A stretch of 64,000 nucleotides of DNA, from the NCBI GenBank assembly GCA_042567505.1, contig JBHPJW010000006.1, positions 1,828 to 65,827 on the forward strand. The letters run 5' to 3'. Position 1 is the first letter of the stretch, and each line of letters begins with the position of its first letter. This DNA comes from Fibrobacterota bacterium. GTDB lineage: Bacteria > Fibrobacterota > Fibrobacteria > UBA11236 > JADFYW01. Made by a program: the position numbers and the translations under genes. Of this stretch, positions 8,101 through 33,020 are shown in pieces. The notes below the pieces were generated by a model, which did no database searches, was not told the origin of the DNA, and saw nothing but the letters and a program-made list of their open reading frames with translations.

Positions 8101-8132
8101 GCGTACCAGCGGTACGCCGCTGGCATGCCGTT
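8101..8132. repeat. variant palindromic element (cggcgtacc-agc-ggtacgccg) after the second ABC ATPase gene
   Basis: cggcgtaccagcggtacgccgctggcatgccg. Confidence 0.55.
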
Positions 8133-8155
8133 AAATATATAGAGGCAATCTTTGG

Positions 8156-8656
8156 TTAACTGAATTCCCTATCAAGTATGGAGTGGATGAATTTTTCCAG
8201 GCTGATGGGATAAAACCGGGGATGAGGGCACCAAATTACCCCGGTGTTTATTTTTTCCTGTCTCTCCAGTTCTTCCAGGACATTTTTCAGGATTTCTTTA
8301 TCACAGGCTTCAAAAATCTCAATGGTAAGGTTTCCTCCTTTAATGTTTTTGTTCTCCTGCGGTGCAATCTTAAAGGAAAAGGTTCTGCTGACAATGCTCT
8401 TGTCCATGAAGGGTTCCGGCTCTTCAAAAATCTCCTCGAATTTTTCATTATTCGGGTGGGGTGAAAAAACCAGTTTGGGGCTGACCGTGATTTCACCCTT
8501 TAATTTGACTGATCCGGAATCTTTGGCGGTATTTGGCCCTACGAGAATATAAGGAAGAATATGATATCCCTGTACAATGCCGGTTATGGGTTTTCTGGAG
8601 ATTTCCGTTGATTTAAAGATCGAATGGATAAATTCATTGTCTACATCATCATGCAT
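8156..8656 (-). CDS. hypothetical protein
   Basis: 166-aa ORF, no recognised motifs. Confidence 0.45.
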   Translation of the reverse strand: MHDDVDNEFIHSIFKSTEISRKPITGIVQGYHILPYILVGPNTAKDSGSVKLKGEITVSPKLVFSPHPNNEKFEEIFEEPEPFMDKSIVSRTFSFKIAPQENKNIKGGNLTIEIFEACDKEILKNVLEELERQEKINTGVIWCPHPRFYPISLEKFIHSILDREFS

Positions 8657-8718
8657 ATGATTCCAAGGTAAAAAATTGCAGACCGGATTTCTAACCCGGG
8701 CAGGTAACCGAGAGGCGC

Positions 8719-11298
8719 TTATCTGTCCGGGACCATGAATTCCCAGCTGCTCCTGAACCGATTGGAATTAAAGCTTACCGCACCATGAGATATTGTCGAA
8801 TAAATCTCAACTCCCTGGTTTGCCAGCCTTTCCAGGGCGGCGGTATGCGGCATCCCGAAGCGGTTGTTCCGCCCTGCGCTGATAATGCCTGCCCCAGGGC
8901 TGACCGCTTTCAGGAATTCCGCCGTGGAAGCGGTAGCGCTGCCGTGGTGGGAGATTTTAACGATATCGGATTGTGTACCGGGAATACCAGCCAACCATTG
9001 TTCTGCCCTTTTTTCTATATCGCCGGTTAAAAGGATTCTTTTCCCGTGCATGGTTAATGACACTACCACGGAATTGTCGTTCCTGGTTGAAAACTGGTTT
9101 TCACGGCATGGGCTGAGGACGCTGAGAGAAACATGAGGATGTTTATAGAGTGTATCGCGGCAGTGGATAATGATAAGAGGTATATCGTGGTTAATCAGCA
9201 TTTGAACTGTCTGTGCCCAGGCCTGAGCTGACGAGGAATCACCTGAATATGCCACCTTTTTAATATCTATCCGGGGAATAAGGAATCTGAGTCCCCCATA
9301 ATGGTCGAGGTCACCGTGGCTTAAGATGACCAGGTCGAGCTCATTGATACCCGAATACTTTAAAAAGGGGAGGATAGTATATCTACCGCTTCCGGATTGC
9401 GCACTTCCAGGTCCGGCATCCAGTAAAACATGATAATCACCGGGCAGGCTGATAAAGGCTGCGTCTCCCTGGCCGACATCAAGAAAAGTGATCCGGGCGG
9501 GTTCGCTGATAACATTTGCCAGGCTGGAAAAAGCATAAATCAGTGAAAAACAGAGTAGATATGATAATGCGATGGGCTTGAGTTTTCTTCTGGAAAGGGC
9601 AAAAGGAATAATCAGCAGGAGGGAGCCTATTAATCCGGCCAGCAGCCAGGAAAGGGAAGGAAGAAACAGACGGCTCAAGGGAATCCGGCTCAGCTTTTCC
9701 ACTGAAACAAGAAGCAGGTTTGCAAACAGGGAACAGGTTTCTCCCATCCAGAGGGCCGGGGCATTGAACAATGGAGACAGAGCTATGGAAAGAGAACCGG
9801 TAAGCACCATTCCGGAGGTGAGAAAGATAGTAAGGATATTGCCGAAAATGGCTAGTGGTGAAACTTGATGTATGGTGTAGGCCAGGAAGGGGAGGGTGGC
9901 AAAGAACAAAAGGCCGCTTACCAGTATCGTTGACATAACAGCTCTCATAAAGGAATTGCGGAGGCCGTATCCGTTCAAAATTGCCGAAATGGTTTTTGAG
10001 TAGTAAAGGAGGAAATAGGTTGCGCAAAAGGAAAGCTGAAATCCAAGAGACAGTATCTGGTAAGGCATGATCAGAAGGCACAGGGTACAGGTAAGCGCCA
10101 GATTGCTCAGGGTGAATCGCGGCCTTTCTAAAAACACGGTGATTACCAGGCAACCGAACATGATAACAGAACGGATGACGCTTATGGAAGCACCTGAGAC
10201 CGGAATGTACAGGACGAGCAGGAGGGCGGCTGTGCCGTAGGCCCATTTCCTGGGGAGCCGCAAAAAAGTCAACAGCTGAATTAATACCAGCGCTATGATT
10301 CCCACGTGCAGCCCGCTGATGGCCAGCAGATGGAACATTCCGGAGTTGGCGAAGTTTTCCCGGATTTCATTGGGAAGCAGGTCACGGGTGCCCAACAGGG
10401 CGGCCTGAACCAGAGGCAGAGCTTCCGGACTGATGGATTTTTCCAGGGCCCGTTCCAGAAACAGGCGGACCTTCGCAACGGCGCGGAACAGGAAATTTGC
10501 CCGGGACGTTACTGTCATGGAATCTGCCTGATAAAGCCAGCTTATGTCCTGGGAAGCCAGGTATTTCGCATAGTCGAATTGACCCGGATTGGTGGGCGGT
10601 TCCAGAGGTTGAAATCGGCCGTATACCTTTACACCTTGTCCGGGGAAAATCCTCTCGGGCATGGTTTTTGATTGGACAATGCCGGTGCCATAATCTGTCT
10701 TCAGTATGATTTTTTTCATGTATGCGCCCGAAGAAAAATTACGGGCCCTTCCGGTTATCTGGTTCAGTTGCCCGGGTATGGCGGTTTTCTCATGGAAAAC
10801 GTGCAGCAACACACACCACAGGCAAAAAACAAGACTCAGGTTGAGAATACGGGTCTTGTGGAGCCCGATGAAAAAAAACAGACAGAAGGTGAAGCCCAGT
10901 ACAGCAGCCCACCGGTTATAAAAGTGGAAAACGCAACCGAAGAGGCAGGGAAACAGCAGTATGATGGCATAGTGCCACTTCACCTTTGCCCTGCAATCCT
11001 GGCGGAAATCAGCCAGGAACCGGTACGCAGCCCTGATATTTGTTAAAATCGGAACCTCATGAGGAATGGTCTTTTCGGCCCTGTTGCCGGAATAATCCTG
11101 CCGTAAATAGTACATAGAAATTAAAAGGTTTTTCAACCCGCCTTTTAGTCCCATAAGCCTTTTTTGCGCCAAAAAGGCCGGTAAATAAGTTTTCAAGAGC
11201 CTGGATTTGATGATTGCACTGATAATTATCGATAAATAATTTAGATTAAGGTAAGTTAGTGGAAACTTTCTTTTAACTTTTGCAGAGGCTTTTCTCAT
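8719..11298 (-). CDS. comEC: DNA internalisation/competence protein ComEC/Rec2 (competence channel domain + metallo-beta-lactamase domain)
   Basis: Polytopic membrane region followed by MBL motif ILSHGDLDHYGG; true start may be an internal Met (N-terminal ~90 aa uncertain). Confidence 0.85.
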   Translation of the reverse strand: MRKASAKVKRKFPLTYLNLNYLSIIISAIIKSRLLKTYLPAFLAQKRLMGLKGGLKNLLISMYYLRQDYSGNRAEKTIPHEVPILTNIRAAYRFLADFRQDCRAKVKWHYAIILLFPCLFGCVFHFYNRWAAVLGFTFCLFFFIGLHKTRILNLSLVFCLWCVLLHVFHEKTAIPGQLNQITGRARNFSSGAYMKKIILKTDYGTGIVQSKTMPERIFPGQGVKVYGRFQPLEPPTNPGQFDYAKYLASQDISWLYQADSMTVTSRANFLFRAVAKVRLFLERALEKSISPEALPLVQAALLGTRDLLPNEIRENFANSGMFHLLAISGLHVGIIALVLIQLLTFLRLPRKWAYGTAALLLVLYIPVSGASISVIRSVIMFGCLVITVFLERPRFTLSNLALTCTLCLLIMPYQILSLGFQLSFCATYFLLYYSKTISAILNGYGLRNSFMRAVMSTILVSGLLFFATLPFLAYTIHQVSPLAIFGNILTIFLTSGMVLTGSLSIALSPLFNAPALWMGETCSLFANLLLVSVEKLSRIPLSRLFLPSLSWLLAGLIGSLLLIIPFALSRRKLKPIALSYLLCFSLIYAFSSLANVISEPARITFLDVGQGDAAFISLPGDYHVLLDAGPGSAQSGSGRYTILPFLKYSGINELDLVILSHGDLDHYGGLRFLIPRIDIKKVAYSGDSSSAQAWAQTVQMLINHDIPLIIIHCRDTLYKHPHVSLSVLSPCRENQFSTRNDNSVVVSLTMHGKRILLTGDIEKRAEQWLAGIPGTQSDIVKISHHGSATASTAEFLKAVSPGAGIISAGRNNRFGMPHTAALERLANQGVEIYSTISHGAVSFNSNRFRSSWEFMVPDR

Positions 11299-18649: not shown

Positions 18650-21600
18650 CTATTCCAGCGTAAAGGCGTCCAGGTTGCCTCCGGCGGTGCCGAATATCAC
18701 CAGACCGGCATCCTCGCTTATCCAGGGACCGGCGTCAGCGTCGTCAGAAGCGTCGCTGTAGGGCCAATTGGTCATGGTTGCGGCGCTGGAGGCGTTGTCG
18801 TCTATGGCATAATATCGCCCTCCCTGCCGGCCGAAGTACACAACGGTGTCCCAGGGCAGGGGAGCTGCGTTTACGGTATCCAGTGCGTCATAAGCCCAGT
18901 CGACAGTGGCCGCTATGCCTGAGCCGTTGTCGGATACTTTCTTCACGTTGTTTTCCACAGCAACGTAGATGTCTCCGGTGTTGGCGGTGTCGTCGGAGGT
19001 CTTTCCCATAATAAAGGCCGGGCCGGTGTTGGCGGTACCCAGGTTCACGGAAGTGGGAGACCATTTAAACGACCAGGTGGAAATAGTGATGGCGTACAGG
19101 CTGGAGGTGGCGGGTGTCACATAAAGCGTGTTCCTGTCCACCAGCAGGGGCAGCTGAACGTCTGTGCCCATGTTGATACCGGCGCCGGTCTGGGTTCCGT
19201 CGTAATCATACTTGTAGACATATCCGCCCCCGCCCGTGGCCGTGGCGACATATATCTCATCATTTTTTACCACGAGGTCCGCGCTCAGGCTGACGTCGGC
19301 CAGGTTCACCGGCCATCCGCTCATGGTGGAATCATTAATGTAATTATACCTTGTTATGTAGTTTGTATAGGTAATAAAAAACGTGGAGTCGTCCGGGCTG
19401 GCATAGGGATTGCCCGCCGTGGCGTTGAGATCAAGGGGCGTGAAGACTTCGGAAGAGGAAGAAATATCATCCTGCCTGCCTATCACGTATTCTCCGGCTG
19501 AAGCGAAGATCTTGTATTTGCTTACGTCCGTGTCGTAGACATAAGTGGGCATGTTGCATGCCCCGTATGCCGAGGTGGAAAAAAACCATTTCTGCTGCCC
19601 GTCGCTCAAATTATAGCTGAAGAGCCTGTTAACGCCGGATCCTGTGCCTATATAAATCCGGTTCTCGGTAATGGCCCCGCCCTGCACAGGGCCCAGGCCT
19701 GTCTTGCTCCATGCTGCGGCCACCATATTCTTGGTGTAATTGTCTATGGAAGCAGTGGAGTCGCCGTTTCCGATGGCGTCGAAGGCCCAGATTTTGAAGT
19801 AATACAAGGTGTTTATACTCAGTCCGGTGATGGTGGTGGAGGTGGTGGCAGCTGACGTCAGGGCGCCGTCGTCGCCATCGTCCCATTCCGTGCCGGAGCT
19901 GTCCCGCGCCTCTGCCAGGGTGGTGCCGTACCAGATCTCATAGTGATCAAAGTTCCGGTCCGTGGCTGCGGTCCACCCCAGGGTAACCGTGGTGCCCGTG
20001 GAGTCCGATCCCGCCAGGGAGGCCAGCCCGGCCGGAATTTTGGTATCGATGGCAAAAGTATCGCTTTCGGTGGTGTCCCTATTGGATGAGCCGTCGGTGG
20101 CTATCACCCGGACCAGGTACACGGTATCTGTGTTGGGCAGGTCCGTGTCGACGTCCCAGAGGATGGTATCATTTCCCGTGGCCGAGGTGTCTATGCCCGT
20201 GCCTATGTCCCCGGAAGTGGTTTCCAGGCTGTCATTGCTGTCCCAGCTGCCGCCGTAGAGCTTGTACTCCACTTTTATGTCTACCGTGCCGTCATTGGCG
20301 TCATCAACCTCATACCCCACTCTCACGCTGTCTGGGTGGTATTGGGCGGCATTGACATAAGGCGCGTCATCCCATCCCGTCACCACTGGATCATTTGTGG
20401 CCAGGGTGGTGGTGTTTACGTCAGTATCCGTGTCCTCATTGCCCATGGAATCCAGAGCCCATATCTTAAAGTAATAGGTGGAGGAGGGAATGAGCGAAGT
20501 GATATTGGTGGTGTCGGTGGCCATGGTGGCCAGGGATGCGTCATTGTCCTGGTCCCATTCCAGGGCCGTTCCGGTGCGGCCCTGGACGTCCGACTGGCTG
20601 GTGCCATACCAAATTTCATAATGGGAAAAATGGGATTCGCTGCTGGTAACCGTCCAGGAAAGCCCCACGTCGGTGGCATTTGTGGCCCCAACTGTCAGGC
20701 CGGCCAGTCCCGAGGGGTCCACCAGGTCTATATCAAAGCTGCCGGAGACCGTGGTGTCTGTATTGCTGTCGTCGTCGATGCAGTGGACCCTGACGTTATA
20801 GGCGGCGTCTGTGGTACCGGGGATCAAATCAGTGTATACGTCCCACTGCAGGGTGTCATCTATGCTCGCTCCCGTAGAAATGGTATCGTAATCCCCGGAA
20901 AGCGTGGACGGGTTTGTCCAGGAACAGGAGCTCGCCAGGCAGTATTGCAGCGAACAGACGGCCGTGGTATCGTTGTCATCGCTTACCTCATAGCCCACCC
21001 GGACCGTGCCGGAGTCTATTTGCTCGGCGTCAACCTGGGCGGCCTGGTCCCAGCCCGTGACCGTGGGCGCCGGGTCATCCAGGGTGGTTGTGCTGTCCCC
21101 TGTTATCGTAGCTTCGTTATTCATGGCATCCACGGCCCAGATTTTAAAATGATACTTGGTGGAAGGGCTCAAACCGGTAACAATCATGCTGGTGGTGGCT
21201 ATGTCCTTCATGCCGTTGTTGTTGTCCCCGTCCCATTCCAGGGCTGATCCGTTGCGGTTTTCCACTTCGCTTTTAGAAGAACCGTACCAGATTTCATAGT
21301 GGTCGAAATGTCCTTCATCGGATAATGCCGTCCAGGAAAAACTCACTGAAGTGCTTAAAGGATCCACCACGGCAAAGTCGGCCAGCCCCACCGGAGATTT
21401 GGTGTCCAGGCCGAAGGCCGCGCTCTGCGCGGTGTCGGCCAGCCCGCCGTCACTGGCGATGACGCGCACGTAATAGGTGCCGTCTATGGCATCGCCCAGT
21501 TGGTCACGAACGCTCCATCTAATGGTACGATCGGCGTACTCATTGGTGGCGTCCACTCCGGCGCCTATGTTCCCGGCGGTATCGGTGGCGGCGGTCCAGG

Positions 21601-24370
21601 ACCCCCCGTCCGGCTTGTATTGCAGGGTCACGGTAACTGTGGCGTCGTACTGGTCATAGACCTCGTACTGGATGGTGGCGGAATCCGTCTCGTCTTGCGA
21701 AGCAGTCACGGTACTGGTCGCCCCCAGTCCCGTGACCTGGGGAGGATAAAGCACATAGGTCACCTCCACGTACGGAACGTTGGCCCCTTCGGAAGCGTGG
21801 AAATTCTTATAGGATTCGTTGGTCCCTTCGGCATTGGAGATGAACACCATGCCATAATTGGCGCTATCGCCCGAGTGCCAGTCCTTAAAGGTCTGGGTTA
21901 TGTCCCAGGTATACCAGCCGGTGTTTCCCACCGAGGCGCTCACCACAGAGGCTGATCGGTCATTTCCCTCGGATCCTACGCCGGCCGTGGTCCAGGTGTT
22001 TTCATCGGCGTATTCGGTCCAGTTGCTCATGTTGGCCTGGTCCTGGCCCGTTCCAGTTCCCTCATTCCAGTCCCTCAATACCCTGTAGAGAGTGATGGTC
22101 TGGTTGGTGGCGCTGCCCACCGACCCGCAATAGGACTTAAATTCAGCCAGGAGAACAGTGGCCCCGGTGGGCACATCGCTGAAATCATTCACCTTCACCA
22201 GGGAGCGCATAACGTAGCTGCCGCCCCCGCCGGAACCGACCTTGCCTGCCGTGGCCCCGCCCCGCGTGGCGTCATTGCCGTAATTATAACTGGTATTTAA
22301 GTTTTCTATCATATTGTCATCAAGGTCGGTGAGCTGGACCACTGAATCCGCGTCTGTTTCGGCCAGGGTGGTGACGGCCGTATCGTTGATAGCCGTTTCG
22401 TTGCCGTAATCATCCATGGCCCATACCTGGAAGTAGTATGTTCTTTCGGCCAGCAGGCCGGTGATGGTGGTGGAAGTAGTGGCAGCGCTGGCAAGATTGC
22501 TGTCGTCCGGATCGTTGTCCCATTCCGCCGCGTTGCTGCGGTTCTGCACGCTGGTGGAATCTATGCCGTACCATACTTCATAATGATTGAAATTCCCGTC
22601 TGTGGCGGCGCTGGACCAGCTCAGGGCCACGGTGCTCATGGTGGTGTCGGTGGACGAGAGCGTGGCGGAAAAGGAGGGAACCTCGGTGTCTATGATGAAT
22701 TCCGCCGTAGCCGCCGTATCGATATTGCTGCCATCGTCCTCGGCCAGAATCCTGATGTAAGCAGTGGTGTCTGTTGAGCCGAACTGGGTGCGCACGTCCC
22801 AGTAGACAGAAAGGTCTTCCACCATGTCGACCGCGACTGAACCGGTGTCCCCGTCGGTATTGGCCTTGAAGTCGGCCCAGGCGGTCCAGGAGGCATCGTC
22901 CTTGAGTTTCATTTCCATGGTTACGGTGATGGCGGAATCGTCCTGGTCCCAGGCCTCGTATTTCACCTGTACGCTGTCGGTGTTTATCTGCACCGCCACC
23001 GGATCGACGATGGGGTCCCATCCCGTGATGAGCGGAACTACCGAGGTGAGGGTGTTGGCGCTGTCGGGATCCGTGGTCATTTCGTTGCCGGTTGAGTCTA
23101 TGGCCCATAACTTGAAATAATACTTGGTGTTGTATTCCAGCAGGATTACCTGGGCGCTGTCCGTGGAAATAGTGTTCATGACAGCGTAATCATCCGGGTC
23201 CCATACATACGCCGATACGTTCCTTTCTTCCACATTGGTGAGGTTGGTCCCGTACCAGATCTCATACTTGCTGAAATGGGCCTCGCTGGCCACGGTCCAT
23301 TCCAGGTCCACCGTAGAAAAACCCGAGTCCACCACAGTGAAATCCGCCAGGGAAACGGGGTCCCTGGTATCGATTACAAAGGAAGAGGTGCTTACCGTGT
23401 CCGCGTATCCCTCATCATCGGTGGCTATTGCCCTGACTATGTAGCTGCTGTCAATGCCGGACCCCAGCTGAGCATAGGCGTCCCATACAATGACCCGGTC
23501 CGAGGATGAGGAATTGGCTTCCACGCTGCCTATGTCCCCGGAGGTATTTGTGAGTGCAGTCCAGCCGCCGGCTCCGCCCACCTGGTACTGGGCCGTTATA
23601 GTCACATTATCATCGTCGCTGTCGCTGACTTCATAGGAAATATTTACCGTACTGGTGTCCTCCTGGTCTCCGGTGGCGTTGGCCCCGGAGCTGAGGCCGG
23701 TTATGACCGGCAGTACTCTATACCATACATCGAGGTATGGCTTGTTGGACCCGGCGTCCAGTGAGTTGAAATTCTTTCTCAGATCATCCGCTTCGGTGCC
23801 TTCCAGGATGAGCCCGTAATTAGTTAAATCGCCGTCAACCCAATCCTGAGCAGCTCCTGTCACCCGCCATTTGAACCAGGTGGAGGTGGCGTTTATCACC
23901 ACAGAGTCATAGGCCGAGGCCCCGCGGTCAGTCCCGGCCGTGGCGGCGCCGCTTGCATCCCAGGTGGAAACGTTATGTTTGTTTGAGTTCCAGCTGACCG
24001 CGCCGTCCTGTTCGGCGCCGTCTGCGCTGCCTTCCAGCCAGTCCTGCAGCAGGTGGTATACCCAGATTGATTCAGGGCTGGCCACATCTTCGCCTGAGCA
24101 ATACAGTGCCAGGTCAGCACTGTCTATGACGGCATCGCTGGGCAGGGTGTCGTCTATGGGGAAATTGATGACAATCCGGTAGGGTCCCCTATTCGCTAAA
24201 GCCTCCGTGGTTATGTATCCCAGATACAGGGTGGAGGAGCCCCCATAGTTGTCATCTGCGGATTTATCATTGATATGGGCGTCATTTCCAATGGTAAACT
24301 GCTTGTAAGTGGCCTGGCACAGGCTGCCTAATATGGCAATCATAAGCCCTGTTTTTAAAACCTTATGCAT
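18650..24370 (-). CDS. giant (1906 aa) secreted modular surface protein: two copies of a ~150-aa N-terminal module, at least 5 alternating Ig-like/FN3-like domain pairs, C-terminal PQQ-like beta-propeller
   Basis: Signal peptide. FN3-like repeats anchored by H(F/Y)xxYEIWYG...YYFK(I/L)WA(I/V)D. Second repeat type anchored by (V/I)TGWD...YEV.D.D...Y.VR(I/V)(I/H)A. Module with LY/VYxxLxDW(N/L)EG...NYG(L/M)...PY(L/V)(D/E)V occurs twice. C-terminal WxF/DGxxKW propeller blades. Long internal DNA direct repeats. Confidence 0.8.
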   Translation of the reverse strand: MHKVLKTGLMIAILGSLCQATYKQFTIGNDAHINDKSADDNYGGSSTLYLGYITTEALANRGPYRIVINFPIDDTLPSDAVIDSADLALYCSGEDVASPESIWVYHLLQDWLEGSADGAEQDGAVSWNSNKHNVSTWDASGAATAGTDRGASAYDSVVINATSTWFKWRVTGAAQDWVDGDLTNYGLILEGTEADDLRKNFNSLDAGSNKPYLDVWYRVLPVITGLSSGANATGDQEDTSTVNISYEVSDSDDDNVTITAQYQVGGAGGWTALTNTSGDIGSVEANSSSSDRVIVWDAYAQLGSGIDSSYIVRAIATDDEGYADTVSTSSFVIDTRDPVSLADFTVVDSGFSTVDLEWTVASEAHFSKYEIWYGTNLTNVEERNVSAYVWDPDDYAVMNTISTDSAQVILLEYNTKYYFKLWAIDSTGNEMTTDPDSANTLTSVVPLITGWDPIVDPVAVQINTDSVQVKYEAWDQDDSAITVTMEMKLKDDASWTAWADFKANTDGDTGSVAVDMVEDLSVYWDVRTQFGSTDTTAYIRILAEDDGSNIDTAATAEFIIDTEVPSFSATLSSTDTTMSTVALSWSSAATDGNFNHYEVWYGIDSTSVQNRSNAAEWDNDPDDSNLASAATTSTTITGLLAERTYYFQVWAMDDYGNETAINDTAVTTLAETDADSVVQLTDLDDNMIENLNTSYNYGNDATRGGATAGKVGSGGGGSYVMRSLVKVNDFSDVPTGATVLLAEFKSYCGSVGSATNQTITLYRVLRDWNEGTGTGQDQANMSNWTEYADENTWTTAGVGSEGNDRSASVVSASVGNTGWYTWDITQTFKDWHSGDSANYGMVFISNAEGTNESYKNFHASEGANVPYVEVTYVLYPPQVTGLGATSTVTASQDETDSATIQYEVYDQYDATVTVTLQYKPDGGSWTAATDTAGNIGAGVDATNEYADRTIRWSVRDQLGDAIDGTYYVRVIASDGGLADTAQSAAFGLDTKSPVGLADFAVVDPLSTSVSFSWTALSDEGHFDHYEIWYGSSKSEVENRNGSALEWDGDNNNGMKDIATTSMIVTGLSPSTKYHFKIWAVDAMNNEATITGDSTTTLDDPAPTVTGWDQAAQVDAEQIDSGTVRVGYEVSDDNDTTAVCSLQYCLASSCSWTNPSTLSGDYDTISTGASIDDTLQWDVYTDLIPGTTDAAYNVRVHCIDDDSNTDTTVSGSFDIDLVDPSGLAGLTVGATNATDVGLSWTVTSSESHFSHYEIWYGTSQSDVQGRTGTALEWDQDNDASLATMATDTTNITSLIPSSTYYFKIWALDSMGNEDTDTDVNTTTLATNDPVVTGWDDAPYVNAAQYHPDSVRVGYEVDDANDGTVDIKVEYKLYGGSWDSNDSLETTSGDIGTGIDTSATGNDTILWDVDTDLPNTDTVYLVRVIATDGSSNRDTTESDTFAIDTKIPAGLASLAGSDSTGTTVTLGWTAATDRNFDHYEIWYGTTLAEARDSSGTEWDDGDDGALTSAATTSTTITGLSINTLYYFKIWAFDAIGNGDSTASIDNYTKNMVAAAWSKTGLGPVQGGAITENRIYIGTGSGVNRLFSYNLSDGQQKWFFSTSAYGACNMPTYVYDTDVSKYKIFASAGEYVIGRQDDISSSSEVFTPLDLNATAGNPYASPDDSTFFITYTNYITRYNYINDSTMSGWPVNLADVSLSADLVVKNDEIYVATATGGGGYVYKYDYDGTQTGAGINMGTDVQLPLLVDRNTLYVTPATSSLYAITISTWSFKWSPTSVNLGTANTGPAFIMGKTSDDTANTGDIYVAVENNVKKVSDNGSGIAATVDWAYDALDTVNAAPLPWDTVVYFGRQGGRYYAIDDNASSAATMTNWPYSDASDDADAGPWISEDAGLVIFGTAGGNLDAFTLE

Positions 24371-24434
24371 ACCAGCCTTGTTTTTTTCATCTGTTTGCCA
24401 TTGTTAGTGACGTATCCATAGTAATGGTTGTCGC

Positions 24435-24695
24435 TTAGACCTTGAATTCGATATTCAGTCTGGTGCCTGTGGCTTCGGCCACCCGTATCAGCGTGCTGAC
24501 AGTGTTTCCACCGCCTCCATTATGTTCCATCCTGGAAACCACTTGCTGGGTGATCCTCAGGCGTGAAGCCAGTTCTTCCTGGGTCATCCCAACCATCAAG
24601 CGTACTTTCTTGATGAGGTTTTCCGTTTCCGGTACGACGGTTCCGGCGGATCGCTCTGTTTTGGGTTCTTCCAGGGTTGTTTCGGGATTAATCAT
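24435..24695 (-). CDS. XRE-family helix-turn-helix transcriptional regulator
   Basis: HTH motif MVGMTQEELASRLRITQQVVSRMEHN; lies 65 bp upstream, same strand, of the giant surface-protein gene. Confidence 0.8.
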   Translation of the reverse strand: MINPETTLEEPKTERSAGTVVPETENLIKKVRLMVGMTQEELASRLRITQQVVSRMEHNGGGGNTVSTLIRVAEATGTRLNIEFKV

Positions 24696-24739
24696 GGTCT
24701 GTCTCCTTTCTTAAACTCCCGCCTGTGTCGCCGCAGGCA

Positions 24740-25095
24740 AATGAGTCCGGTGATTGAAATTGAAGATGCCAAGCCGGTCCCGGCCTGAAGTCTCAGATAA
24801 GACAGCGGCCGGCTGTATATGAGCAAAGGTCCAGGCACCGGTTGGCAAAAAGTTATGGTTATAAAGATTTCGTACTGTGAGAAGGTTGAAGGCCAACCGG
24901 CGCCGGAGGCACAATGCAGATAAGACAGCGGCCGGCTGATTATCTGGGAAAAGCCGGACATCGGTTGGCAAAAAGATATGGTTATAAAAAGTTCGTACTG
25001 TGAGAAGGTTGAAGGCCAACCGGCACCCTAAGAACAATGCAGATAAGACAGCGGCCGGCTGTTTATGAGCAAAGGTCCGGACACCGGTTGGTTTT
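24740..25095. repeat. ~3.5 tandem copies of a 123-bp repeat (each with an internal 9-bp-stem hairpin ccggttggc...gccaaccgg) immediately upstream of the XRE gene
   Basis: Units begin cagataagacagcggccggctg at 24794, 24917 and 25040 (~85% identity); partial unit at 24740-24793; inverted copy of the core (agccggccgctgtc) at 25278-25291. Confidence 0.85.
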
Positions 25096-25667
25096 AAGAA
25101 GCTGATAAAAACTGACTTGACACGGATAGTATGAAGCGGATGGCAGAGCAGGTCTCTCGCCATCAGGAACCGGGATTTTTGTGGATTGAATGGAAAGCGA
25201 ATGCTACCGAAGATTTTTAACCTTACAGGTACTGCAAGTTTTGTGAGCACACGGAAAAACGTGTGATAAAAGAGAAAGCCGGCCGCTGTCATACTTTATA
25301 TCTGTCGATCTTTTTAGATCGGAAAAATTATGTCTATTTATTTCAAGTATACAGCAAATAGGCTGTATGTGCCACGTAATAAGTATATTTATGATATTCA
25401 TCATAATGTAATTATAAGAACAGTTTATTGCTTTCTCAAAACTTTGCTTTTTTGTGTTATAATTCGGGATTGTTATACATCAAAGAACACCAAAAAACAA
25501 ATAAATTCAAATATCAATAATATTGGTTTTAGGCCTGTGATTACGAACCTGGTTGAGGTAAATCCAGCTGATGCTTATCTACTGGGCCTTGGACAGACCG
25601 GCAAAAGGGAAGGTTTTTTGTGGAATTAAATTGGAACGTACTTAATCAGGGATGATTAAAGGCAGTT

Positions 25668-25722
25668 TTATCCCCCCCCTCCCTTGCCCAGACCCTGAAG
25701 GGAATGGGGTGAAGGGAGGGAA
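25668..25722 (-). terminator. candidate hairpin terminator downstream of pilQ
   Basis: On the minus strand ccctcccttcaccccattcccttcagggtctgggcaagggaggg forms a 9-bp stem (ccctccctt/aagggaggg) 20 nt after the pilQ stop; weak U-tract. Confidence 0.3.
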
Positions 25723-25746
25723 GGTCCGCTCGATCACATAAAAGTA

Positions 25747-27228
25747 TTATTCGTACTGGGCCTCGCCGCCGATTTCATTGAGGAAATCCCCCACCTTTTC
25801 ATCACTTATCTCTTCCTCCTGGATCTCGTCGGGGGGATCATGCCTGGGTGATTCCAGGTTTTCTTCCGCAGACCGGGCTTCCTCCATATCAGAGATCATT
25901 CGCAAAGGAATTGCGGCTGTCCTGGGCTGGGCCTGACCGTTCTTAACAATGTAGGGGGTGATGAAGATTATCAAGTCTTTTTTAACGATGTTCTTTGAGG
26001 TATGTTTGAACAGAATTCCCAGTAAGGGGATGTCTTTTAAAAATGGAATCCCCCTTTCAGTTTCATTTTCAACCTTGGATGTCAGGCCCCCGATCACTAC
26101 CGTTTCGCCGTCATTTACCACCACTGTAGTTTTTGCCTCTGTAGTGGTTACAATGGGCCCGCGGGTAATCGCGTCAGTGCGGGCCTCGCTTCTCTGTGGA
26201 GACAAGTCGAGAATGACCCTGTTGTCATTAGTGATATGGGGAGTGACAATAAGTTCGATTCCCGCGTCCACGAATTCTGTGGTGGAGTTTAGATTCGCGT
26301 CCAACTTGTTGAAGGGCCGCCGTTCGCCGATAAAAATCCTGGCTTCGGTATTATCAAGCGTGGTTATCTGCGGTTTGGCAACCACTTCGCCTTTTCCCTC
26401 TGAAAGGAGGTGTTCAATGGAGGCGCCCAGCCTGCCGTCGAGCAGCCTGGCTGCCACGGCCAGAGTGGGATTGGCCACTCTTCCCGGAGAAGATCTGCCC
26501 AGAACCGCTCCTGATTGGCTGGCTGAAGGAACATCATTCAAATCAGGTGCCGGCGCTCCGGTTCCATAACCCCAGTTGATTCCCAATTCCTGGGCCGCGT
26601 CTGAACTTGCCTCGATTATCTGCGCTTGAATGTGTACTTGATAGGTTTCAACGTCAAGGTTTATGATGGCTTTTTTTATCTCGCCTAATTTTGATTGAAT
26701 GTCGGTTATAATAAAGGCGTTGGACATCTCCACAATAGCCAGTTTCCCCCTTTCAGACAGGAGACCGGTTACGGCGGTTTGCAGATCTTCCACCTTGGTG
26801 TGTTTGAGGTGGATTATCTCCCTAATCAGCTGAGCCTCTTTTTCCTGGGAGTTGAATTCCTTAAGGGACTGCACGTAGATGTATTCGTCCTCAATGGAAT
26901 AGGTAAGGCCGTACATCTGGCACAGCACCTCCAGAGCCTGCTTCCAGGTTTTGGCCGTCAGCGTCAGGTTCAGACGGCCGGAAAGCGTGGGAGACAGGAC
27001 GATGTCTACCTTCCCTGCGGCGGATATGGCCTTGAAAGCTGAGCGAATATCCAGGTTGGGGAAGTAAAAATCCCTGGCAACATTCTGAGAAGATGCGGCC
27101 GGCCCTGGTTGGTTGGTATTATCCGGGTTCTGACCCGAAGGAGGTTCGCTCTGATCCTGGCCTGAGAGCAGGCCGCCCATCAGGAACAACGTGAGAATTA
27201 TTCTTTTCAGTACGTCCCGGTGCTTCAT
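25747..27228 (-). CDS. pilQ: type IV pilus secretin PilQ (GspD/PilQ secretin family, short N-terminus)
   Basis: Secretin C-domain VVIGGLTSKVENETERGIPFLKDIPLLGILFKHT...LIIFITPYIV; signal peptide; last gene of pilMNOPQ. Confidence 0.9.
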   Translation of the reverse strand: MKHRDVLKRIILTLFLMGGLLSGQDQSEPPSGQNPDNTNQPGPAASSQNVARDFYFPNLDIRSAFKAISAAGKVDIVLSPTLSGRLNLTLTAKTWKQALEVLCQMYGLTYSIEDEYIYVQSLKEFNSQEKEAQLIREIIHLKHTKVEDLQTAVTGLLSERGKLAIVEMSNAFIITDIQSKLGEIKKAIINLDVETYQVHIQAQIIEASSDAAQELGINWGYGTGAPAPDLNDVPSASQSGAVLGRSSPGRVANPTLAVAARLLDGRLGASIEHLLSEGKGEVVAKPQITTLDNTEARIFIGERRPFNKLDANLNSTTEFVDAGIELIVTPHITNDNRVILDLSPQRSEARTDAITRGPIVTTTEAKTTVVVNDGETVVIGGLTSKVENETERGIPFLKDIPLLGILFKHTSKNIVKKDLIIFITPYIVKNGQAQPRTAAIPLRMISDMEEARSAEENLESPRHDPPDEIQEEEISDEKVGDFLNEIGGEAQYE

Positions 27229-28865
27229 GGTAGCATCCTTTCCTTTGGAGATTTAAGCTTCAGGGTATAGAAACGGAACACCCCGTATTCTGATATTTCA
27301 AATACGACTTTATGCCGTGTAATCTGAGTGACTTTGCCATTGGATATGGAATCGCCTTTTCTCAGAGCAATTGATATGGCAGGTTCTGTTCTATGCTCTA
27401 ACACGGCCAGCGGGTCTTTGGCATTCCAGATAATCCCTACCAGTTTCATCTGGTCGAGGATTATGTCTCTGTCCGAAAGCGGCGCATGTTCCACAGGGAT
27501 AAAAGGATCACGGCGCCCAAAGCTGGTATACTGGACCTTTTTTCTCTCCCTCTCGCGCTTGCGTTTTTCCTGTTCCTCAATCCTTTTTTTCTCAGCAAGT
27601 ATCCTGGCCATTTCCTGTTCTCTTTCTATTCTTTCCTGTTCAGCCTTGCGCTTTTCTTCCAGGCGGAGCTTTTCTTTTCGCTTCAAATTGAGGATCTCTT
27701 CCTCCTTTTTCCTTTTTTCCTCCCCAGCTTTTTTCCTGGCCAATTTCTCCTCTTTCTTTTTCGCCTCTTCTTCGGCCCTTTGTTTGGGTTCCAGTTCTTT
27801 TTTTTTTAATGCTTCTTCCTCCGCCCTTTGTTTGGCTGCCAGTTCTTTTTGTTTTCTGGCTTCTTCTTCAGCCTTTTGTTTCGCGGCTAATCTCATTTCT
27901 TCAGCTTCCCTCTCCGCTTGTTGTGTTTTTATGCTCTTTCTTTGTTCAGGAGTTAGTTTGTCTTCATATGCCAGTAGGTTGTTCTTGACCCAGCCGGTAT
28001 CCTTCCCAGTGTACACTTGAAACCAGTCCTTTTTTCTGCTGATTCCGGTGACTTTTTCGCCGGCATGTATTGTTCTGATTGTTTGCGAGCCCGTTCCTGG
28101 AGCATCTCTCAGTTTTATCCTGTTGCTGAGAGCGATATAGTCCCGGTTTTCTTCAGAAATAGAGAACGTCTTACCCGGCATGGTTTTTAATCGGGATGTT
28201 TTTCGGTCCATGGCAGTTCCAAGGTCAAAAGCGCTTTCCGTCCCCAGGACATCCTCCAGTTTCACTGAGTCTTCTGCCTGGATCTCCCGGGGATTGCCGG
28301 TATCAGGCGTTTCCACGGTGGGGGGCGGTAATTGGATGGACTCATCGGGATTCTCATTCTGGGCGAGGAGTATATGGCTCGATCCTTCAATTTCTGAAAT
28401 GGGCTGGGTGGAGGGAGAAACCGTCCAGTGGAATTTGTCCCCCCTTGATTTTCCCAACGCGAGGTTGATGGTCCCGGCATTGGATTTTGAGGCCTTGTAT
28501 TTGCTGCTTCGGTTCAGGGTTCGAAGGCTGAAACCCACACTCAGAAAACCACGAACCTTGCCGTGGTTTTTCCCGATGACTTTGCGGACGGCCATATGTG
28601 ACACATAGGGGTTGTTTCTGGCGATGGGATAGTTGCCGTAGATGATACTGCTCCCGGTTTCCAGAAAGTTAATGGAATAAATTCCGGTTTCAGCCTCGAA
28701 ATGCTGGAAAAACCTGGGGATGCGCGAGGCCAGCGAATCCTTCCGGAAAGAAAATTCCACAAACACCTGGTCGCCGTCGCTGGCCAGGCGCACTTTTTCG
28801 AGAATAGCGCCGCGAAGCGGCGCCGTGAGGCACGCCAACAGGAAGAATAAGGCGCCGGGTTTCAT
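27225..28865 (-). CDS. PilP-like pilus assembly protein fused to AMIN-like N-domain, SH3b domain and ~130-aa K/E-rich coiled coil
   Basis: Position between pilO and pilQ. C-terminal RRDPFIP...LVGIIWN...GKVTQITRHKVVF resembles PilP core. SH3b-like segment IKLRDAPGTGSQTIRTIHAGEKVTGISRKKDWFQVY...GWV. Long AEEEA/KK/RKAEQER repeats. 4-nt overlap with pilQ. Confidence 0.6.
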   Translation of the reverse strand: MKPGALFFLLACLTAPLRGAILEKVRLASDGDQVFVEFSFRKDSLASRIPRFFQHFEAETGIYSINFLETGSSIIYGNYPIARNNPYVSHMAVRKVIGKNHGKVRGFLSVGFSLRTLNRSSKYKASKSNAGTINLALGKSRGDKFHWTVSPSTQPISEIEGSSHILLAQNENPDESIQLPPPTVETPDTGNPREIQAEDSVKLEDVLGTESAFDLGTAMDRKTSRLKTMPGKTFSISEENRDYIALSNRIKLRDAPGTGSQTIRTIHAGEKVTGISRKKDWFQVYTGKDTGWVKNNLLAYEDKLTPEQRKSIKTQQAEREAEEMRLAAKQKAEEEARKQKELAAKQRAEEEALKKKELEPKQRAEEEAKKKEEKLARKKAGEEKRKKEEEILNLKRKEKLRLEEKRKAEQERIEREQEMARILAEKKRIEEQEKRKRERERKKVQYTSFGRRDPFIPVEHAPLSDRDIILDQMKLVGIIWNAKDPLAVLEHRTEPAISIALRKGDSISNGKVTQITRHKVVFEISEYGVFRFYTLKLKSPKERMLP

Positions 28866-28867
28866 CG

Positions 28868-29452
28868 TTATTTAGACGTGAATGTTTTCAATTGAAATTT
28901 TGTGTCAATGGTATTGATGATATCATCAATTTGAGATACGTTTTTTACCCTTTTGACTGACGCGTTCTGCATAATATGCACATTGGTGATGGCAGTGGGG
29001 TAGGTAAAGTTCGCTATTTCTTGAAAAAAGGCCCCCAGTCCGTGATAACCGGACTCCACCTTGATAGCGTAATTATTTTCCATGTAAAATTCCTTTTCCA
29101 TGGCATTCAACGGCTCAAAAAGCACCGGTACCACTGAGGACCTTCTCGACGCCCTGGAAAGATCCTGCAGACGCTTGGGAATGAAGTCCTGGTCCGGGAA
29201 CATTTCCTTCAGCCTGATAAAGTCTTCTGAAGCCTGTTTTATCTCCCGCTGCAGTTCTCCTTTTCTTTGGTTCTGTGTCATTATCTTGCTCAACTCAGTT
29301 TTCTTATTGTTGAGCACGCTTTCCAATCGCTGGCTCTCCTCGTTATAGGGAATCCACTCCCTGGACCAGAACAGATACATCAGGTAGAACACAAGAGCCA
29401 TGCACGCTCCGGCGTATATCAGCATTTTGGTTTTCAGGGTAAGTTGTTTCAT
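28868..29452 (-). CDS. pilO: type IV pilus assembly protein PilO
   Basis: N-terminal TM helix, coiled coil, then PilO-like periplasmic core; operon position. Confidence 0.75.
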   Translation of the reverse strand: MKQLTLKTKMLIYAGACMALVFYLMYLFWSREWIPYNEESQRLESVLNNKKTELSKIMTQNQRKGELQREIKQASEDFIRLKEMFPDQDFIPKRLQDLSRASRRSSVVPVLFEPLNAMEKEFYMENNYAIKVESGYHGLGAFFQEIANFTYPTAITNVHIMQNASVKRVKNVSQIDDIINTIDTKFQLKTFTSK

Positions 29453-30069
29453 GAAACCACGTCAGCAACCCGGGCTGACGGTCTTTCCGCTCCCAGATTT
29501 AAATTGACCTTAATTTTCAAAGTAAAGATGAATGCGTCTGGTTTTATTGATCCGTCCACCTGAATTTTATCCAGACTGACGTTCAGGAAATAATTGTCTT
29601 TTTCCAAGGCTATCATGTAAACTGCGACCTCGGAAAATAAATGGGACGTTCCAATTAAAAGCAAGTCTCCGGCCTGCTCATTTTCCTGCTTTATTTCCTT
29701 GATCCAGGTATGGGGCGGCACTGTTTTGCTCAATCCCTCCAGTATGCGGACCCATACCTGTTTGTTGAAGCTTATGCTTTTTAATGAACGGTTCTTGGCG
29801 TTTTTTTCCTGCAGCAACCGCTCCAGCTTTTTGATTTGAGACAGGATTTTTTTATTGGCCTTGATGTCGGCTTCAATGGATGCCAATTTTTCTTTATTGT
29901 CTTTCAGGTCGCTGTGAATGGTGGAAATACCAATCAAGTAGGCCAGCAACGTGATTAACACCACGAGACTGGGAACCACTATTTTAGTATCCAGCAGGTA
30001 GGAATAATCTTTCTTGATTTTCCGTTCCTCAACCGGAAGCAGGTTTATTTCTATTAATTCAGACATCAA
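29449..30069 (-). CDS. pilN: type IV pilus assembly protein PilN
   Basis: Conserved N-terminal INLLP motif (ELIEINLLPVEERK), single TM, coiled coil. Confidence 0.8.
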   Translation of the reverse strand: MMSELIEINLLPVEERKIKKDYSYLLDTKIVVPSLVVLITLLAYLIGISTIHSDLKDNKEKLASIEADIKANKKILSQIKKLERLLQEKNAKNRSLKSISFNKQVWVRILEGLSKTVPPHTWIKEIKQENEQAGDLLLIGTSHLFSEVAVYMIALEKDNYFLNVSLDKIQVDGSIKPDAFIFTLKIKVNLNLGAERPSARVADVVS

Positions 30070-31148
30070 AACCGCCTCAAAGCCAATCCGGTGGCAACCG
30101 TTAAAGTAGTGGAGATGTCTTGAGGGACTGCCCCGACAAATTTTTTCCGGTCATAAGCCATAGTACCCAGCGGGTCAGCGATTTCTACCTGGGTTTCGTG
30201 CCTTTCCGCCAGCAGGTCCGGGAGGTTTTCTATGCAGGCGCCTCCCCCGCAGATGATTATTTTGTCAATGGCCAGATTGTCCTCAGATGACTGGAAATAA
30301 CTGAATGCCAGATCAAGTCCTATGCTGAGCTCTTCCACGGAAATTTCTATGCAGCGCTGGACGGTATCATCGTTGTAATTGCCCCGTTCTCTCCCCTTCA
30401 GGATGGCCATGGCTTCCCACTCTTCCACCTGGAGTTCTTTCTGCAGAGACTGGATAAAATAACTGCCGGCCGTTGGAATGTCCCTGGTAGAATGATATGC
30501 GCCATGCTTTATGAAAGTCAGATTGGTGACGTTTTCTCCTATGTTTACCAGGCACAAGACCTTTTTTTTATCTTCCGGAGAAGCTGTGAAGAAAAAGGCG
30601 TTGGCAACAGCGAAAGTGTCCACATCAATATTGACCGGATCCAGTCCCGCATCCCGGATCAGTGACAGGAATGGCTGCATTACTTTTAATCTGGCCGCAA
30701 CCAGGAGGACTTCCATGTCTCCTGTGACGGGATTTTTATCAAGGATTTTGTAATCGAGCTGAATGTCTTCCACATCAAAAGGGCTGTGCCTTCCCGCTTC
30801 CATGAGAATGAGTTCATCGTCTGATTCGAGTTTGGAGGATTTCAATCGAATACGGTCAGCAATAACCCCATATGACCATGAAAGGGCGAAATTCACTTTT
30901 TTTACCTTTCCCGCCGGATCGGTTTTATTGATGAGAGAAGTTATGGCGTGCAGGAGTTCGTCCCGGTTCTTGATTTCACCGCTTTCCATGGTCCCTTCTT
31001 TGAAAACGTGAATTCCGGCACCCAAAAGGACAGGACCTTTTGTCCCATGTTTGATATAAACGATTTTAACGCTGTGATTACCAATGTCGAGGCCGACACT
31101 GACGGGATCACCTCCAAACAAACGGAGAACTCGCTTCTTTATTTCCAA
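30066..31148 (-). CDS. pilM: type IV pilus assembly protein PilM (actin-like ATPase fold)
   Basis: Phosphate-1 motif VGLDIGNHSVKIVYI; FtsA/PilM-like length and operon position. Confidence 0.85.
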   Translation of the reverse strand: MEIKKRVLRLFGGDPVSVGLDIGNHSVKIVYIKHGTKGPVLLGAGIHVFKEGTMESGEIKNRDELLHAITSLINKTDPAGKVKKVNFALSWSYGVIADRIRLKSSKLESDDELILMEAGRHSPFDVEDIQLDYKILDKNPVTGDMEVLLVAARLKVMQPFLSLIRDAGLDPVNIDVDTFAVANAFFFTASPEDKKKVLCLVNIGENVTNLTFIKHGAYHSTRDIPTAGSYFIQSLQKELQVEEWEAMAILKGRERGNYNDDTVQRCIEISVEELSIGLDLAFSYFQSSEDNLAIDKIIICGGGACIENLPDLLAERHETQVEIADPLGTMAYDRKKFVGAVPQDISTTLTVATGLALRRF

Positions 31149-31435
31149 AGACTTTTTACCCAGTTACTTTTAACCGTATTTGATTCTACAGCCTTAAGTT
31201 ATTTATGTCAAGTTAATATAAATCTTTAATAGTTATGGCAGATACAAATATCGTGTAATATTTATTTTTAATGAATTACATAAGTATTATATTGTGATTC
31301 TAGTTATAGAGGATACTATATGTTGTGGGGATCTGACGTAATTATAATCTCATAGAGATATGAGAATAAATTTTCCGGGATCCCTCTCACAGGGAGGGAA
31401 AGTTCTCTTTTTAAGGTCTGGCAGGGGTGAAAGAT

Positions 31436-32649
31436 CTAGCGGAACTGGGAATCCATCCGGTTTTTTTCAAATACAAAACGGACTATTTTTTCCTGAGTAG
31501 CTGTCTCGATTTCACAGAATTTCAATCGGTGGATGAATACATTCGCGTCATTCTTTTTTAACGCGTCATAATTTATGACCTCGGACAGGATGTTTTTCAA
31601 AGAAGAACCGGGCAGGTCAAAATTCAGAGACAAAGTAGATCCCGAACTTAGGCCGCTGGACAGACGGAGACAAATGCCGCCTCCGCTGATATCCATGATT
31701 CGGCCTTCCAGTACCGTTCCATTGGGTAAATCATCTTTATCAGGGCTTTCATCTTTTCCCCCGGTCTTTTTGACCAAGGTTGCTTTGCAAGGGATATTAA
31801 CGTCTACCCGCACCCAGTTCCGTAATTGCTTTCTCTGGAGATCGTGGGTGTGTTCTAATACAATACTGCCGTCTCGTATTTCCTTTACCCGGATTTTTAG
31901 ACGGTACTCAGCGTCACCTGGTCGGATAAACCAGACTGGCAGACTTTGATTCTGATTTATCTGCCCAATTGGCAGGTCTTTACCCTCCAGAGACCACACT
32001 CTTTCGTCTATTTCCTTAATGGTGGCTTTTATTGACATATCGCTTTTTCTGTTTCCAATGGTAACAGGCATTCCGGGATTGAGCTGTTTCGTGCTGGTCA
32101 GGTGAGTTTCAACTGGAAGTCTGGAGTAATTCAGTTTTTTCCTTAATCGGGACAGGAGGTCGTACGGCATCAGCTCAGAGCTGTCTTTTTTCTCCAGGGT
32201 GTTCAGATAGGCGTCGAGGCTTTCCTCATAGACCGTTGGAGAGTTGAAAATCGTATCGGCCTGAAGCTGCTTTCCCGCTTCCACTATATTTTTAAGAAGT
32301 TTCGTTTCCTTGGGCGTGAGACCTCTTTTTGATACCAGTTCTCCAAAATTCTGCCAACTCAGTTCAATTTTTTCCCGTCTCTGTTTATCGGATTTTAGGA
32401 TTTCCCATGCCACAAAAAAACCGAGAATGAAAATAGCGAGAGAACCCAGCAGAATTATCAAAATGGGGCTGGCGGATGGGAAAGCTTTGCGGATATTGTC
32501 ATAGACACTATCATCCGCCGGGAGAGATATTGCCAGGCCGCTTACCAGGAGGATAATCCTGGCAAGCAGGTATTTTATGTTTTCTTTTTCTTCCACTTCT
32601 GGAACTTTTTTAGAATGAATATAAAAATTAATCAAATTTCGATAACACA
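31436..32649 (-). CDS. membrane-anchored PilZ-domain protein (predicted c-di-GMP receptor) upstream of pilM
   Basis: Two N-terminal TM helices; C-terminal PilZ motifs RKQLRNWVRVDV (RxxxR) and DISGGG (DxSxxG); start taken at internal Met MCYRN. Confidence 0.65.
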
Positions 32650-32705
32650 TTATTTTACTAAATGAAAGATTGTTTACCGCCCTCCGAAATGATAAAATAA
32701 GAAAA

Positions 32706-33020
32706 ATGAAAAAGATACCCCTTTCCGAAGTCCAGGATGGAATGATCCTGGCTAAACCTGTTATCGGTTCCGACGGCAAAATACTTTTGGCCGAAGGTGA
32801 AGTACTCAAGGCAAAAATGGCCATGCGTCTTTCGAATTGGGGTGTGGCTATCGCTTACATTCGTGAGGAAGGCGAGGAAGGAAGTTCTGATGAGGATGGG
32901 GAACAGAAGGCGGCAAGGTTGAAAATGCTGGAAAATACTTTTAAGGGAGTATTGGATAATCCCAATATGAAAACCATCTATGTTGCCATAAAAAAACATA
33001 TCCAGGAAAAAGAGGCATGA
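32706..33020 (+). CDS. small DUF3391-like protein (N-terminal module usually fused to HD-GYP/HD domains)
   Basis: MKKIPLSEVQDGMILAKPVIGSDGKILLAEGEVL resembles the DUF3391 consensus; 4-nt ATGA overlap with the downstream HDOD gene. Confidence 0.45.
   Translation: MKKIPLSEVQDGMILAKPVIGSDGKILLAEGEVLKAKMAMRLSNWGVAIAYIREEGEEGSSDEDGEQKAARLKMLENTFKGVLDNPNMKTIYVAIKKHIQEKEA

Follow-up and report, generated by a model that had tools for sequence, protein, structure and literature searches.

A giant DNRLRE- and FN3-domain protein of a Fibrobacterota bacterium belongs to a propeller-tailed family encoded beside type IX secretion-type partner genes

What does a secreted protein of 1906 amino acids (aa), encoded directly behind a small regulator gene and repeat-rich DNA, do for its host, and is such a locus built to vary? 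The question is raised by a 64,000-nucleotide stretch of contig JBHPJW010000006.1 of a Fibrobacterota bacterium (GCA_042567505.1, positions 1,828 to 65,827), here called the window, in which the giant gene (18650..24370, minus strand; 1906 aa plus stop, ATG start) lies downstream of an 86-aa XRE-type helix-turn-helix gene (24435..24695, minus strand). An earlier reading made without database searches, in the following the sequence-only reading, had given the coordinates and products of both open reading frames (ORFs) correctly and had proposed a recombination-prone, variable surface structure under a dedicated regulator. Our analysis leads to a different answer. The giant is a member of an uncharacterised Fibrobacterota family in which a beta-propeller always occupies the extreme C-terminus behind interchangeable passengers, and beside the genes of its relatives lie genes for partners that resemble type IX secretion system (T9SS) components. 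On balance, we consider it probable, if only somewhat so, that the protein is a glycan-binding surface adhesin whose propeller at the C-terminus would dock it to a partner delivered by the T9SS.

The giant is a very acidic multidomain protein (279 Asp and Glu versus 81 Lys and Arg residues) that is predicted to be exported by the Sec pathway, and an identical protein is recorded at NCBI as 'DNRLRE domain-containing protein [Fibrobacterota bacterium]'. Residues 1-20 (24311..24370; all parts of the giant gene lie on the minus strand) were judged by eye to be a type I-like signal peptide, MHKVLKTGLMIAILGSLCQA, with probable cleavage after CQA, and N-terminal hydrophobic segments of an equivalent kind are present in the relatives. 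With unit borders set by motif anchors and internal alignments, the remainder consists of a first DNRLRE/CBM96 module (DN1, aa 21-219, 23714..24310), two pairs of an unclassified FN3/Ig-like sandwich and an FN3 domain (A1-F1-A2-F2, aa 220-672, 22355..23713), a second DNRLRE/CBM96 module (DN2, aa 673-874, 21749..22354), three further sandwich pairs (A3-F3-A4-F4-A5-F5, aa 875-1548, 19727..21748) and an eight-bladed BamB/PQQ-type beta-propeller (CT, aa 1549-1906, 18653..19726), which ends in ...GGNLDAFTLE, reaches the last residue of the protein and is the module that defines the family. The two DN modules, about 200 aa each and 30% identical to one another, jointly match the NCBIfam model NF033679 (DNRLRE_dom) in two stretches (140.6 bits, cut-off 34), and scanned singly both exceed the cut-off of Pfam CBM96 (PF24517, 26 bits), DN1 with 49.1 and DN2 with 33.6 bits. 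The F units are ordinary FN3 domains (Pfam fn3, 116.9 bits) with a seven-strand sandwich fold. The A units, which have no match in Pfam, were identified by fold alone: an AlphaFold2 (AF2) model of A3-F3, with 30 aligned pairs as input, reached a pLDDT of 96.5, and in Foldseek both of its domains align to tandem FN3-FN3 and Ig-FN3 structures (E ~1e-9 for tandem FN3), which makes A, as modelled, a divergent FN3/Ig-type sandwich. Similarly, the AF2 model of CT (pLDDT 86.5, pTM 0.86) aligns over its whole length to the eight-bladed propellers BamB, YxaL and the designed Tako8, with TM scores of 0.72-0.78. The fold is thus shared with BamB and YxaL, whereas sequence identity amounts to just 15-20%, and BamB is a free lipoprotein while CT is joined, as their last module, to giant secreted proteins. 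In Pfam, CT is identified neither by PQQ_2 (20.8 bits, gathering score 27.6) nor by Beta-prop_ACSF4, the propellers of the relatives carry only precomputed PF13570 matches, some of them weak, and scans of NCBIfam and Pfam found no model that covers this subtype.

These results bear out the protein architecture that the sequence-only reading had put forward, namely a signal peptide, a duplicated DNRLRE-like N-terminal module, at least five pairs of Ig-like and FN3-like domains, and a PQQ-type propeller at the C-terminus (in our model with TM ~0.75 to eight-bladed propellers), while the resolution of all modules into known folds (CBM96/DNRLRE, FN3-type sandwiches, BamB-type propeller) counts against the variable locus that it had derived from them. 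The giant belongs to the DNRLRE/CBM96 and FN3 domain families and carries a propeller of the BamB-type fold, and we regard it as a Sec-exported, non-enzymatic, strongly acidic protein that is probably located at the cell surface. DNRLRE domains are known from archaeal disaggregatases and S-layer proteins and from alginate, hyaluronate and pectate lyases. The two modules of the giant exceed the NCBIfam DNRLRE and Pfam CBM96 thresholds like those of other members, in agreement with the name at NCBI; unlike the lyases, the giant has no attached catalytic domain. Modules of this type occur in polysaccharide lyases, and the founding CBM96, which binds alginate, is only ~30% identical to DNRLRE-domain members generally (PMC9971899). 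As in FN3-rich bacterial adhesins and stalk proteins, the binding modules are separated by a rod, here of ten FN3-type sandwiches. Unlike in those proteins, two sandwich subtypes strictly alternate, of which the A subtype is without a Pfam model, and the protein ends in a propeller and not in an LPXTG motif, a T9SS C-terminal domain (CTD), an autotransporter barrel or a type I secretion signal. Neither an LPXTG motif nor a transmembrane segment was found by regular expression and hydrophobic-stretch scan, and the giant is to be classed neither as a canonical T9SS cargo nor as a sortase substrate, an autotransporter or a pilus component.

The family to which the giant belongs became apparent from its propeller. 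A profile built from six CT domains and searched with HMMER against 1.84 billion representative proteins returned 302 representatives at E<1e-30, which fall into two classes. The first comprises generic multi-propeller proteins with many partial matches. The second comprises about 45 proteins of ~400-3738 aa in which a single full-length match runs to within 0-2 residues of the C-terminus, typically ...GGNLDAF(T/A)LE(P); a few of its members have tails of 12-42 residues after the propeller, and some of the shortest entries, e.g. P0014, are fragments from short contigs. Against the local propeller profile, the window giant scores 511 bits with a tail of 0 residues and with all family-invariant propeller residues aligned. 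A word-index search with the propeller alignment was less informative and, owing to the word index, returned only 4 matches, mostly on short contigs. All genome matches are to metagenome-assembled genomes of Fibrobacterota, from Fibrobacteria, Chitinivibrionales, 'Fibrobacteres' fen_1185 and Candidatus Raymondbacteria. In front of the propeller, the proteins of the second class are mutually unrelated and carry, among others, DUF2341/LamG-like modules, autotransporter-type PATR, beta-helix-like repeats or six-fold [module-(A-F)2] arrays; a single A-F pair directly before CT is kept in many of them. P0017, with 3738 aa, has a five-fold array of a ~145-175-aa module plus (A-F)2, after which comes a sixth module that has just one A-F pair, and in P0019, P0028, P0035, P0047 and P0059 as well as in P0013, P0030, P0038 and P0056 the same CT stands behind other passengers, including PATR and DUF2341/LamG-like repeats. 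The tails of 12-42 aa past the propeller in P0003, P0005, P0012, P0013 and P0056 are rich in Lys and Arg and may resemble the basic terminal domains known from Fibrobacter succinogenes proteins. A keyword search of the literature found no published description of the family or of the gene cassette described below.

The loci of the relatives share a conserved neighbour. From 19 locus identifiers (L001 lies wholly inside L002) we obtained 18 loci, 14 of them non-redundant and 13 with enough flanking sequence to be informative. In all 13 of these (L002-L005, L007, L009-L011, L013, L014, L016-L018), the propeller-tailed gene is adjoined by a gene for a protein of ~550-590 aa, here named PQQp, which consists of a PQQ_2/BamB-like propeller followed at the C-terminus by a type A sorting domain of the T9SS. 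Each of the 12 complete PQQp proteins matches TIGR04183 at E<=1e-3 (best 8.3e-8), one of them with 29.8 bits (cut-off 23); PF18962 gives a score of 28.3 bits (cut-off 27), and five of the 12 show a weak match to PorZ. In five loci, a gene for a barrel of the PorV/PorQ family (~320-350 aa) is present in addition; NF033709 confirms it in four of them (five genes, two of which are in L014; the two scores tabulated are 97.9 and 97.7 bits, cut-off 90), and in L007 the barrel gene is truncated, with support from BLAST only. Four further neighbours of ~300-350 aa that had been considered PorQ-like proved unrelated on testing, one of them being FtsY. L014 (1-18050) holds three cassettes in a row (PQQp, PorQ-like, giant, PQQp, giant, PQQp, PorQ-like, giant) and L016 (718-20722) two giant-PQQp pairs in opposite orientation, and in both loci every giant is paired with a PQQp paralogue of its own. 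The distances that separate CT domains correlate with those between the neighbouring PQQp proteins (Mantel r 0.73, 0/5000 permutations), and the giant-PQQp pairs have therefore been inherited and duplicated as units. In L002 (GCA_050293925.1), the cassette is preceded immediately upstream by two radical SAM/SPASM genes and a PqqD-like gene (886-3389, minus strand), which look like a peptide-maturation cluster. Between the PorQ-like gene and the giant gene (P0006) of the same locus, a 785-aa protein is encoded (7642-9999, plus strand) with a T9SS-CTD-like tail (17 bits against TIGR04183, under the cut-off) and a faintly GHL6 glycoside-hydrolase-like N-terminus, which may be a further cargo of this cluster.

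Two known arrangements resemble the cassette. PorZ has two propellers and a retained CTD, and its place of action is the attachment complex, where it works together with PorQ (PMC5121618, PMC11285876). The neighbours of the propeller-tailed genes are likewise a propeller with a type A CTD and a barrel of the PorV/PorQ family. In contrast to the PorZ-PorQ system of Porphyromonas gingivalis, their equivalog scores lie far under the cut-offs (PorZ 20 bits versus 260, PorQ 57-64 versus 220), nothing in the P. gingivalis complex corresponds to the giant itself, and several paralogous pairs occur per contig, each by a different giant gene, which suggests partners specific to their cargo and not a single core component. 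Type B cargo such as SprB anchors to cognate PorP/SprF-like barrels encoded adjacent to it, and in SprB-SprF and PG1035-PorP the gene for a repetitive surface protein of very large size lies beside that for a dedicated outer-membrane partner, with anchoring thought to be non-covalent (PMC9143113); the genes of the family described here are arranged in a similar way. Unlike in these systems, the giant ends in a propeller of ~340 aa and not in a type B Ig-like sandwich of roughly 70-110 aa, the barrel of the relatives belongs to the PorV/PorQ and not to the PorP/SprF family, and a CTD-bearing propeller protein is present in addition.

On this basis, it might be proposed that the two DNRLRE/CBM96-type modules are candidate polysaccharide binders carried on the rod of ten FN3-type sandwiches, and that the C-terminal propeller would serve as a cell-proximal docking module which binds the T9SS-delivered, surface-retained PQQp. 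PQQp in turn would be held by the PorQ-like barrel, and the CBM-type modules would thereby be projected outward to form a multivalent glycan adhesin. How a giant without a CTD might cross the outer membrane is a separate matter, for which hitch-hiking with PQQp is one possibility. A bolder proposal, which we put forward only tentatively and hold to be possible but rather unlikely, is that in Fibrobacterota CT serves as a module for sorting or anchoring that has not been described before, in effect a third type of C-terminal domain associated with the T9SS. It would pair with a cognate PorZ-like, CTD-bearing propeller and a PorQ/PorV-like barrel encoded beside it, and giants without a canonical CTD would by this means arrive at the cell surface or be retained there; this pairing of propellers could take place during export, as hitch-hiking through the translocon, or afterwards, as docking.

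Several points weigh against the adhesin docked through its propeller. The giant has no T9SS CTD of type A or type B (TIGR04183, PF18962 and TIGR04131, none at E<=0.01), as the sequence-only reading had also noted for both the CTD and the LPXTG motif, and no gene for a PQQp or a PorQ/PorV-like protein is present within the 64-kb window, so that for the window copy the docking model depends on parts of the genome outside the window. Contact between CT and PQQp is predicted from gene linkage, and the Mantel correlation can come from linkage and shared ancestry alone and is no proof of contact. Furthermore, the signal peptide was assigned by eye, the CBM96 assignment rests on a match to a hidden Markov model only, which leaves ligand binding putative, and searches of PDB sequences with both DNRLRE modules yielded nothing significant. 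The main alternative is that the propeller is the working head of the protein, active in ligand binding or as a scaffold of a complex, with PQQp and the PorQ-like protein as its co-workers (for instance in a heteromeric extracellular complex or as assembly factors) and with the giant released or held at the cell in another way. The fold matches are in line with it, in that BamB-type propellers are general scaffolds for protein interactions, and so are the missing T9SS CTD and the existence of the window copy without adjacent partners. However, the strict position of the propeller at the extreme C-terminus behind unrelated passengers such as PATR and beta-helix proteins corresponds to the pattern of a module for sorting or anchoring, and within single contigs (L014, L016) there is a separate PQQp paralogue for each propeller-tailed gene. 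We consider this alternative unlikely and retain docking through the propeller as the preferred reading.

Is the array of domain pairs variable? The sequence-only reading had seen direct repeats at the DNA level between the pairs and had taken the locus to be prone to recombination; in its full form, recombination among the units would alter their number or content, and the XRE protein would be the dedicated regulator of the variable structure. The first part proved to be overstated, as within the gene only short matches of 60-80% occur, over conserved motifs, and the longest exact repeat measures 17 nt, compared with 11-16 nt in codon-shuffled controls, so that no stretch of identical DNA suffices for homologous recombination; at the protein level, units of the same type are 32-51% identical. 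Five full-length relatives share 42-57% identity with the giant, and all six proteins have five pairs each in the common order DN-A-F-A-F-DN-A-F-A-F-A-F-CT, with the exception that the N-terminal module of P0003 and P0005 is not a DN but a different one. For 30/30 A units and 30/30 F units of the six proteins, the best match is the positional counterpart in another protein. This positional orthology of 60/60 units, together with their equal number and order, shows that the five-pair array is older than the divergence of the six proteins, and the comparison gave no hint that units have evolved in concert or have been gained or lost. Thus, near-identical DNA repeats and copy-number differences among close relatives, the hallmarks of phase or antigenic variability, are absent, and the array is, by these alignments, old and fixed. 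In P0003, P0005 and P0012 (loci L003 and L005), which are otherwise collinear, an unrelated module of ~150-200 aa stands in the place of the first DNRLRE module, that is, a distal module has been swapped on a conserved stalk. Across the wider propeller family the number of A-F pairs ranges from 0 to 11 over deep evolutionary time; taken by itself this would speak for variation, as would the repeat-rich DNA upstream and the closely spaced XRE gene discussed next, but the range reflects the shuffling of modules over long time spans and not variability of the locus. A variable surface structure is largely refuted by these data and in our view very improbable.

The regulator gene adds little to such a model. 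The XRE protein is a bare HTH_3 domain (PF01381, 39.4 bits, cut-off 23), identical to an NCBI entry named 'helix-turn-helix domain-containing protein', and its gene is on the same strand as the giant gene, 64 nt upstream. Because of this short gap, the common strand and the lack of a predicted terminator in between, it is possible that both genes are co-transcribed in this genome, and the XRE protein may regulate the giant gene locally. The idea of a dedicated regulator that is conserved together with the giant did not hold up: when 5.8 billion protein clusters were searched by word index, the XRE protein itself was the only match, and phmmer (E<=1) gave no XRE-like ORF in the rest of the window or in any of the 18 related loci. 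To judge from these searches, the gene is an idiosyncratic neighbour of one locus and not a conserved part of the system. A role in a toxin-antitoxin system or mobile element was also considered and rejected, as matches to mobile mystery protein A, HipB and MqsA in NCBIfam are far under the cut-offs, and no partner gene is present.

The repeat-rich DNA of the sequence-only reading is real and lies in the non-coding gap of 1051 nt upstream of the XRE gene (24696-25746). It consists of three tandem non-coding repeats of 123 nt (24794-25162, not assigned to a strand), with 84% and 60% identity to the reference copy, and each unit contains an inverted repeat of 12-16 bp, the arms of which are ~45 nt apart (GCCGGTTGGC ... 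GCCAACCGG). Neither the repeats nor the remainder of the leader match a family in Rfam, and a conserved 22-mer of the repeat has no match in genome and metagenome collections and no other copy in the window. Folding of the units gave z values of -0.3 to -3.0 that vary by unit and strand. A possible role of the repeats is that of an operator array or, alternatively, of a structured leader in an XRE-giant transcript. A 193-aa ORF over the repeats (24711-25292, minus strand) is almost certainly spurious, because it has no family match and because the codon changes between two repeat units, 13 nonsynonymous and 2 synonymous, are spread evenly across codon positions. In an AT-rich stretch upstream of the repeats lies the best sigma-70-like promoter match (25411..25439, minus strand; TTGAGA-17-TATAAT, 11/12), a match to the consensus only, which is a possible start of the XRE-giant transcript.

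Further upstream and on the same strand lies a type IV pilus operon identified by profile matches (25747..31148, minus strand), which consists of pilM, pilN, pilO, a gene for a 546-aa SH3-domain protein and the secretin gene pilQ. The SH3-domain protein occupies the usual place of pilP, and a 462-aa PilZ-domain protein is encoded further upstream (region 25747-32824, minus strand). The sequence-only reading had reported no obvious secretion-partner gene, thereby overlooking this pilMNOPQ operon and its secretin; the adjacency is probably coincidental. Were the giant a part of the pilus system, it would be a pilus-associated adhesin or a substrate of the PilQ secretin, and the position of the pil genes directly upstream on the same strand, with no terminator predicted after pilQ, speaks for such a role. 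Against it stand the 1051-nt non-coding gap with its own strong promoter-like site and AT-rich stretch, a codon usage of the giant gene unlike that of the pil genes, and the 13 informative related loci, none of which has pil genes and which have T9SS-type partners instead. We regard a pilus-associated giant as highly improbable and the pil operon as probably no more than a neighbour. The rest of the window is of a housekeeping nature, with aspS downstream of the giant gene and with comEC, phoH, a gene for an LptD-like protein, secY, the gene for a CCA-adding enzyme and tRNA genes. A tRNA-Ile(GAT) and tRNA-Ala(TGC) pair, which is typical of rRNA operon spacers, is located at 52642-52835 on the plus strand, and no rRNA gene was detected in the window with Rfam.

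Codon usage sets the giant gene apart from its surroundings. Its GC content at third codon positions (GC3) of 0.70 is the highest in the window, the 38 other genes having 0.53 +/- 0.05 with a maximum of 0.66, and after correction for amino-acid content the observed 0.688 still compares with 0.534 expected (z 3.2), with all abundant amino acids shifted. In contrast, the GC3 of the relatives' giant genes is like that of their neighbours. The shift and the absence of partners are consistent with relocation of the gene or its transfer out of a relative richer in GC; alternatively, the shift may reflect expression-linked bias. It might accordingly be argued that a recent transfer or relocation has left the window copy an orphan, poorly functional or non-functional after loss of its partner cassette, all the more as it is the sole copy without a PQQp gene and has unique repeats and an orphan XRE gene at its flank. 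However, the ORF of 1906 codons is intact, every family-invariant residue of its propeller is in place, the partners could be encoded elsewhere in the genome, and the GC3 shift can also stem from expression. Such an orphan is improbable in our estimation.

Taken alone, the gene in the window encodes an ordinary large adhesin-like protein of known folds, and the neighbouring regulator is incidental. The more useful result is the genomic rule at the level of the family, by which a propeller-tailed giant is accompanied by a propeller protein with a T9SS CTD and by a PorV/PorQ-like barrel. If the propeller does dock or sort these proteins, T9SS-linked surface display would reach past the two known types of CTD and past the Bacteroidota, and it would explain how very large proteins without a CTD are mounted on the surface of Fibrobacterota. 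Members of this phylum are polysaccharide degraders, and in that case the propeller would also provide a simple sequence signature by which their surface proteome might be predicted.

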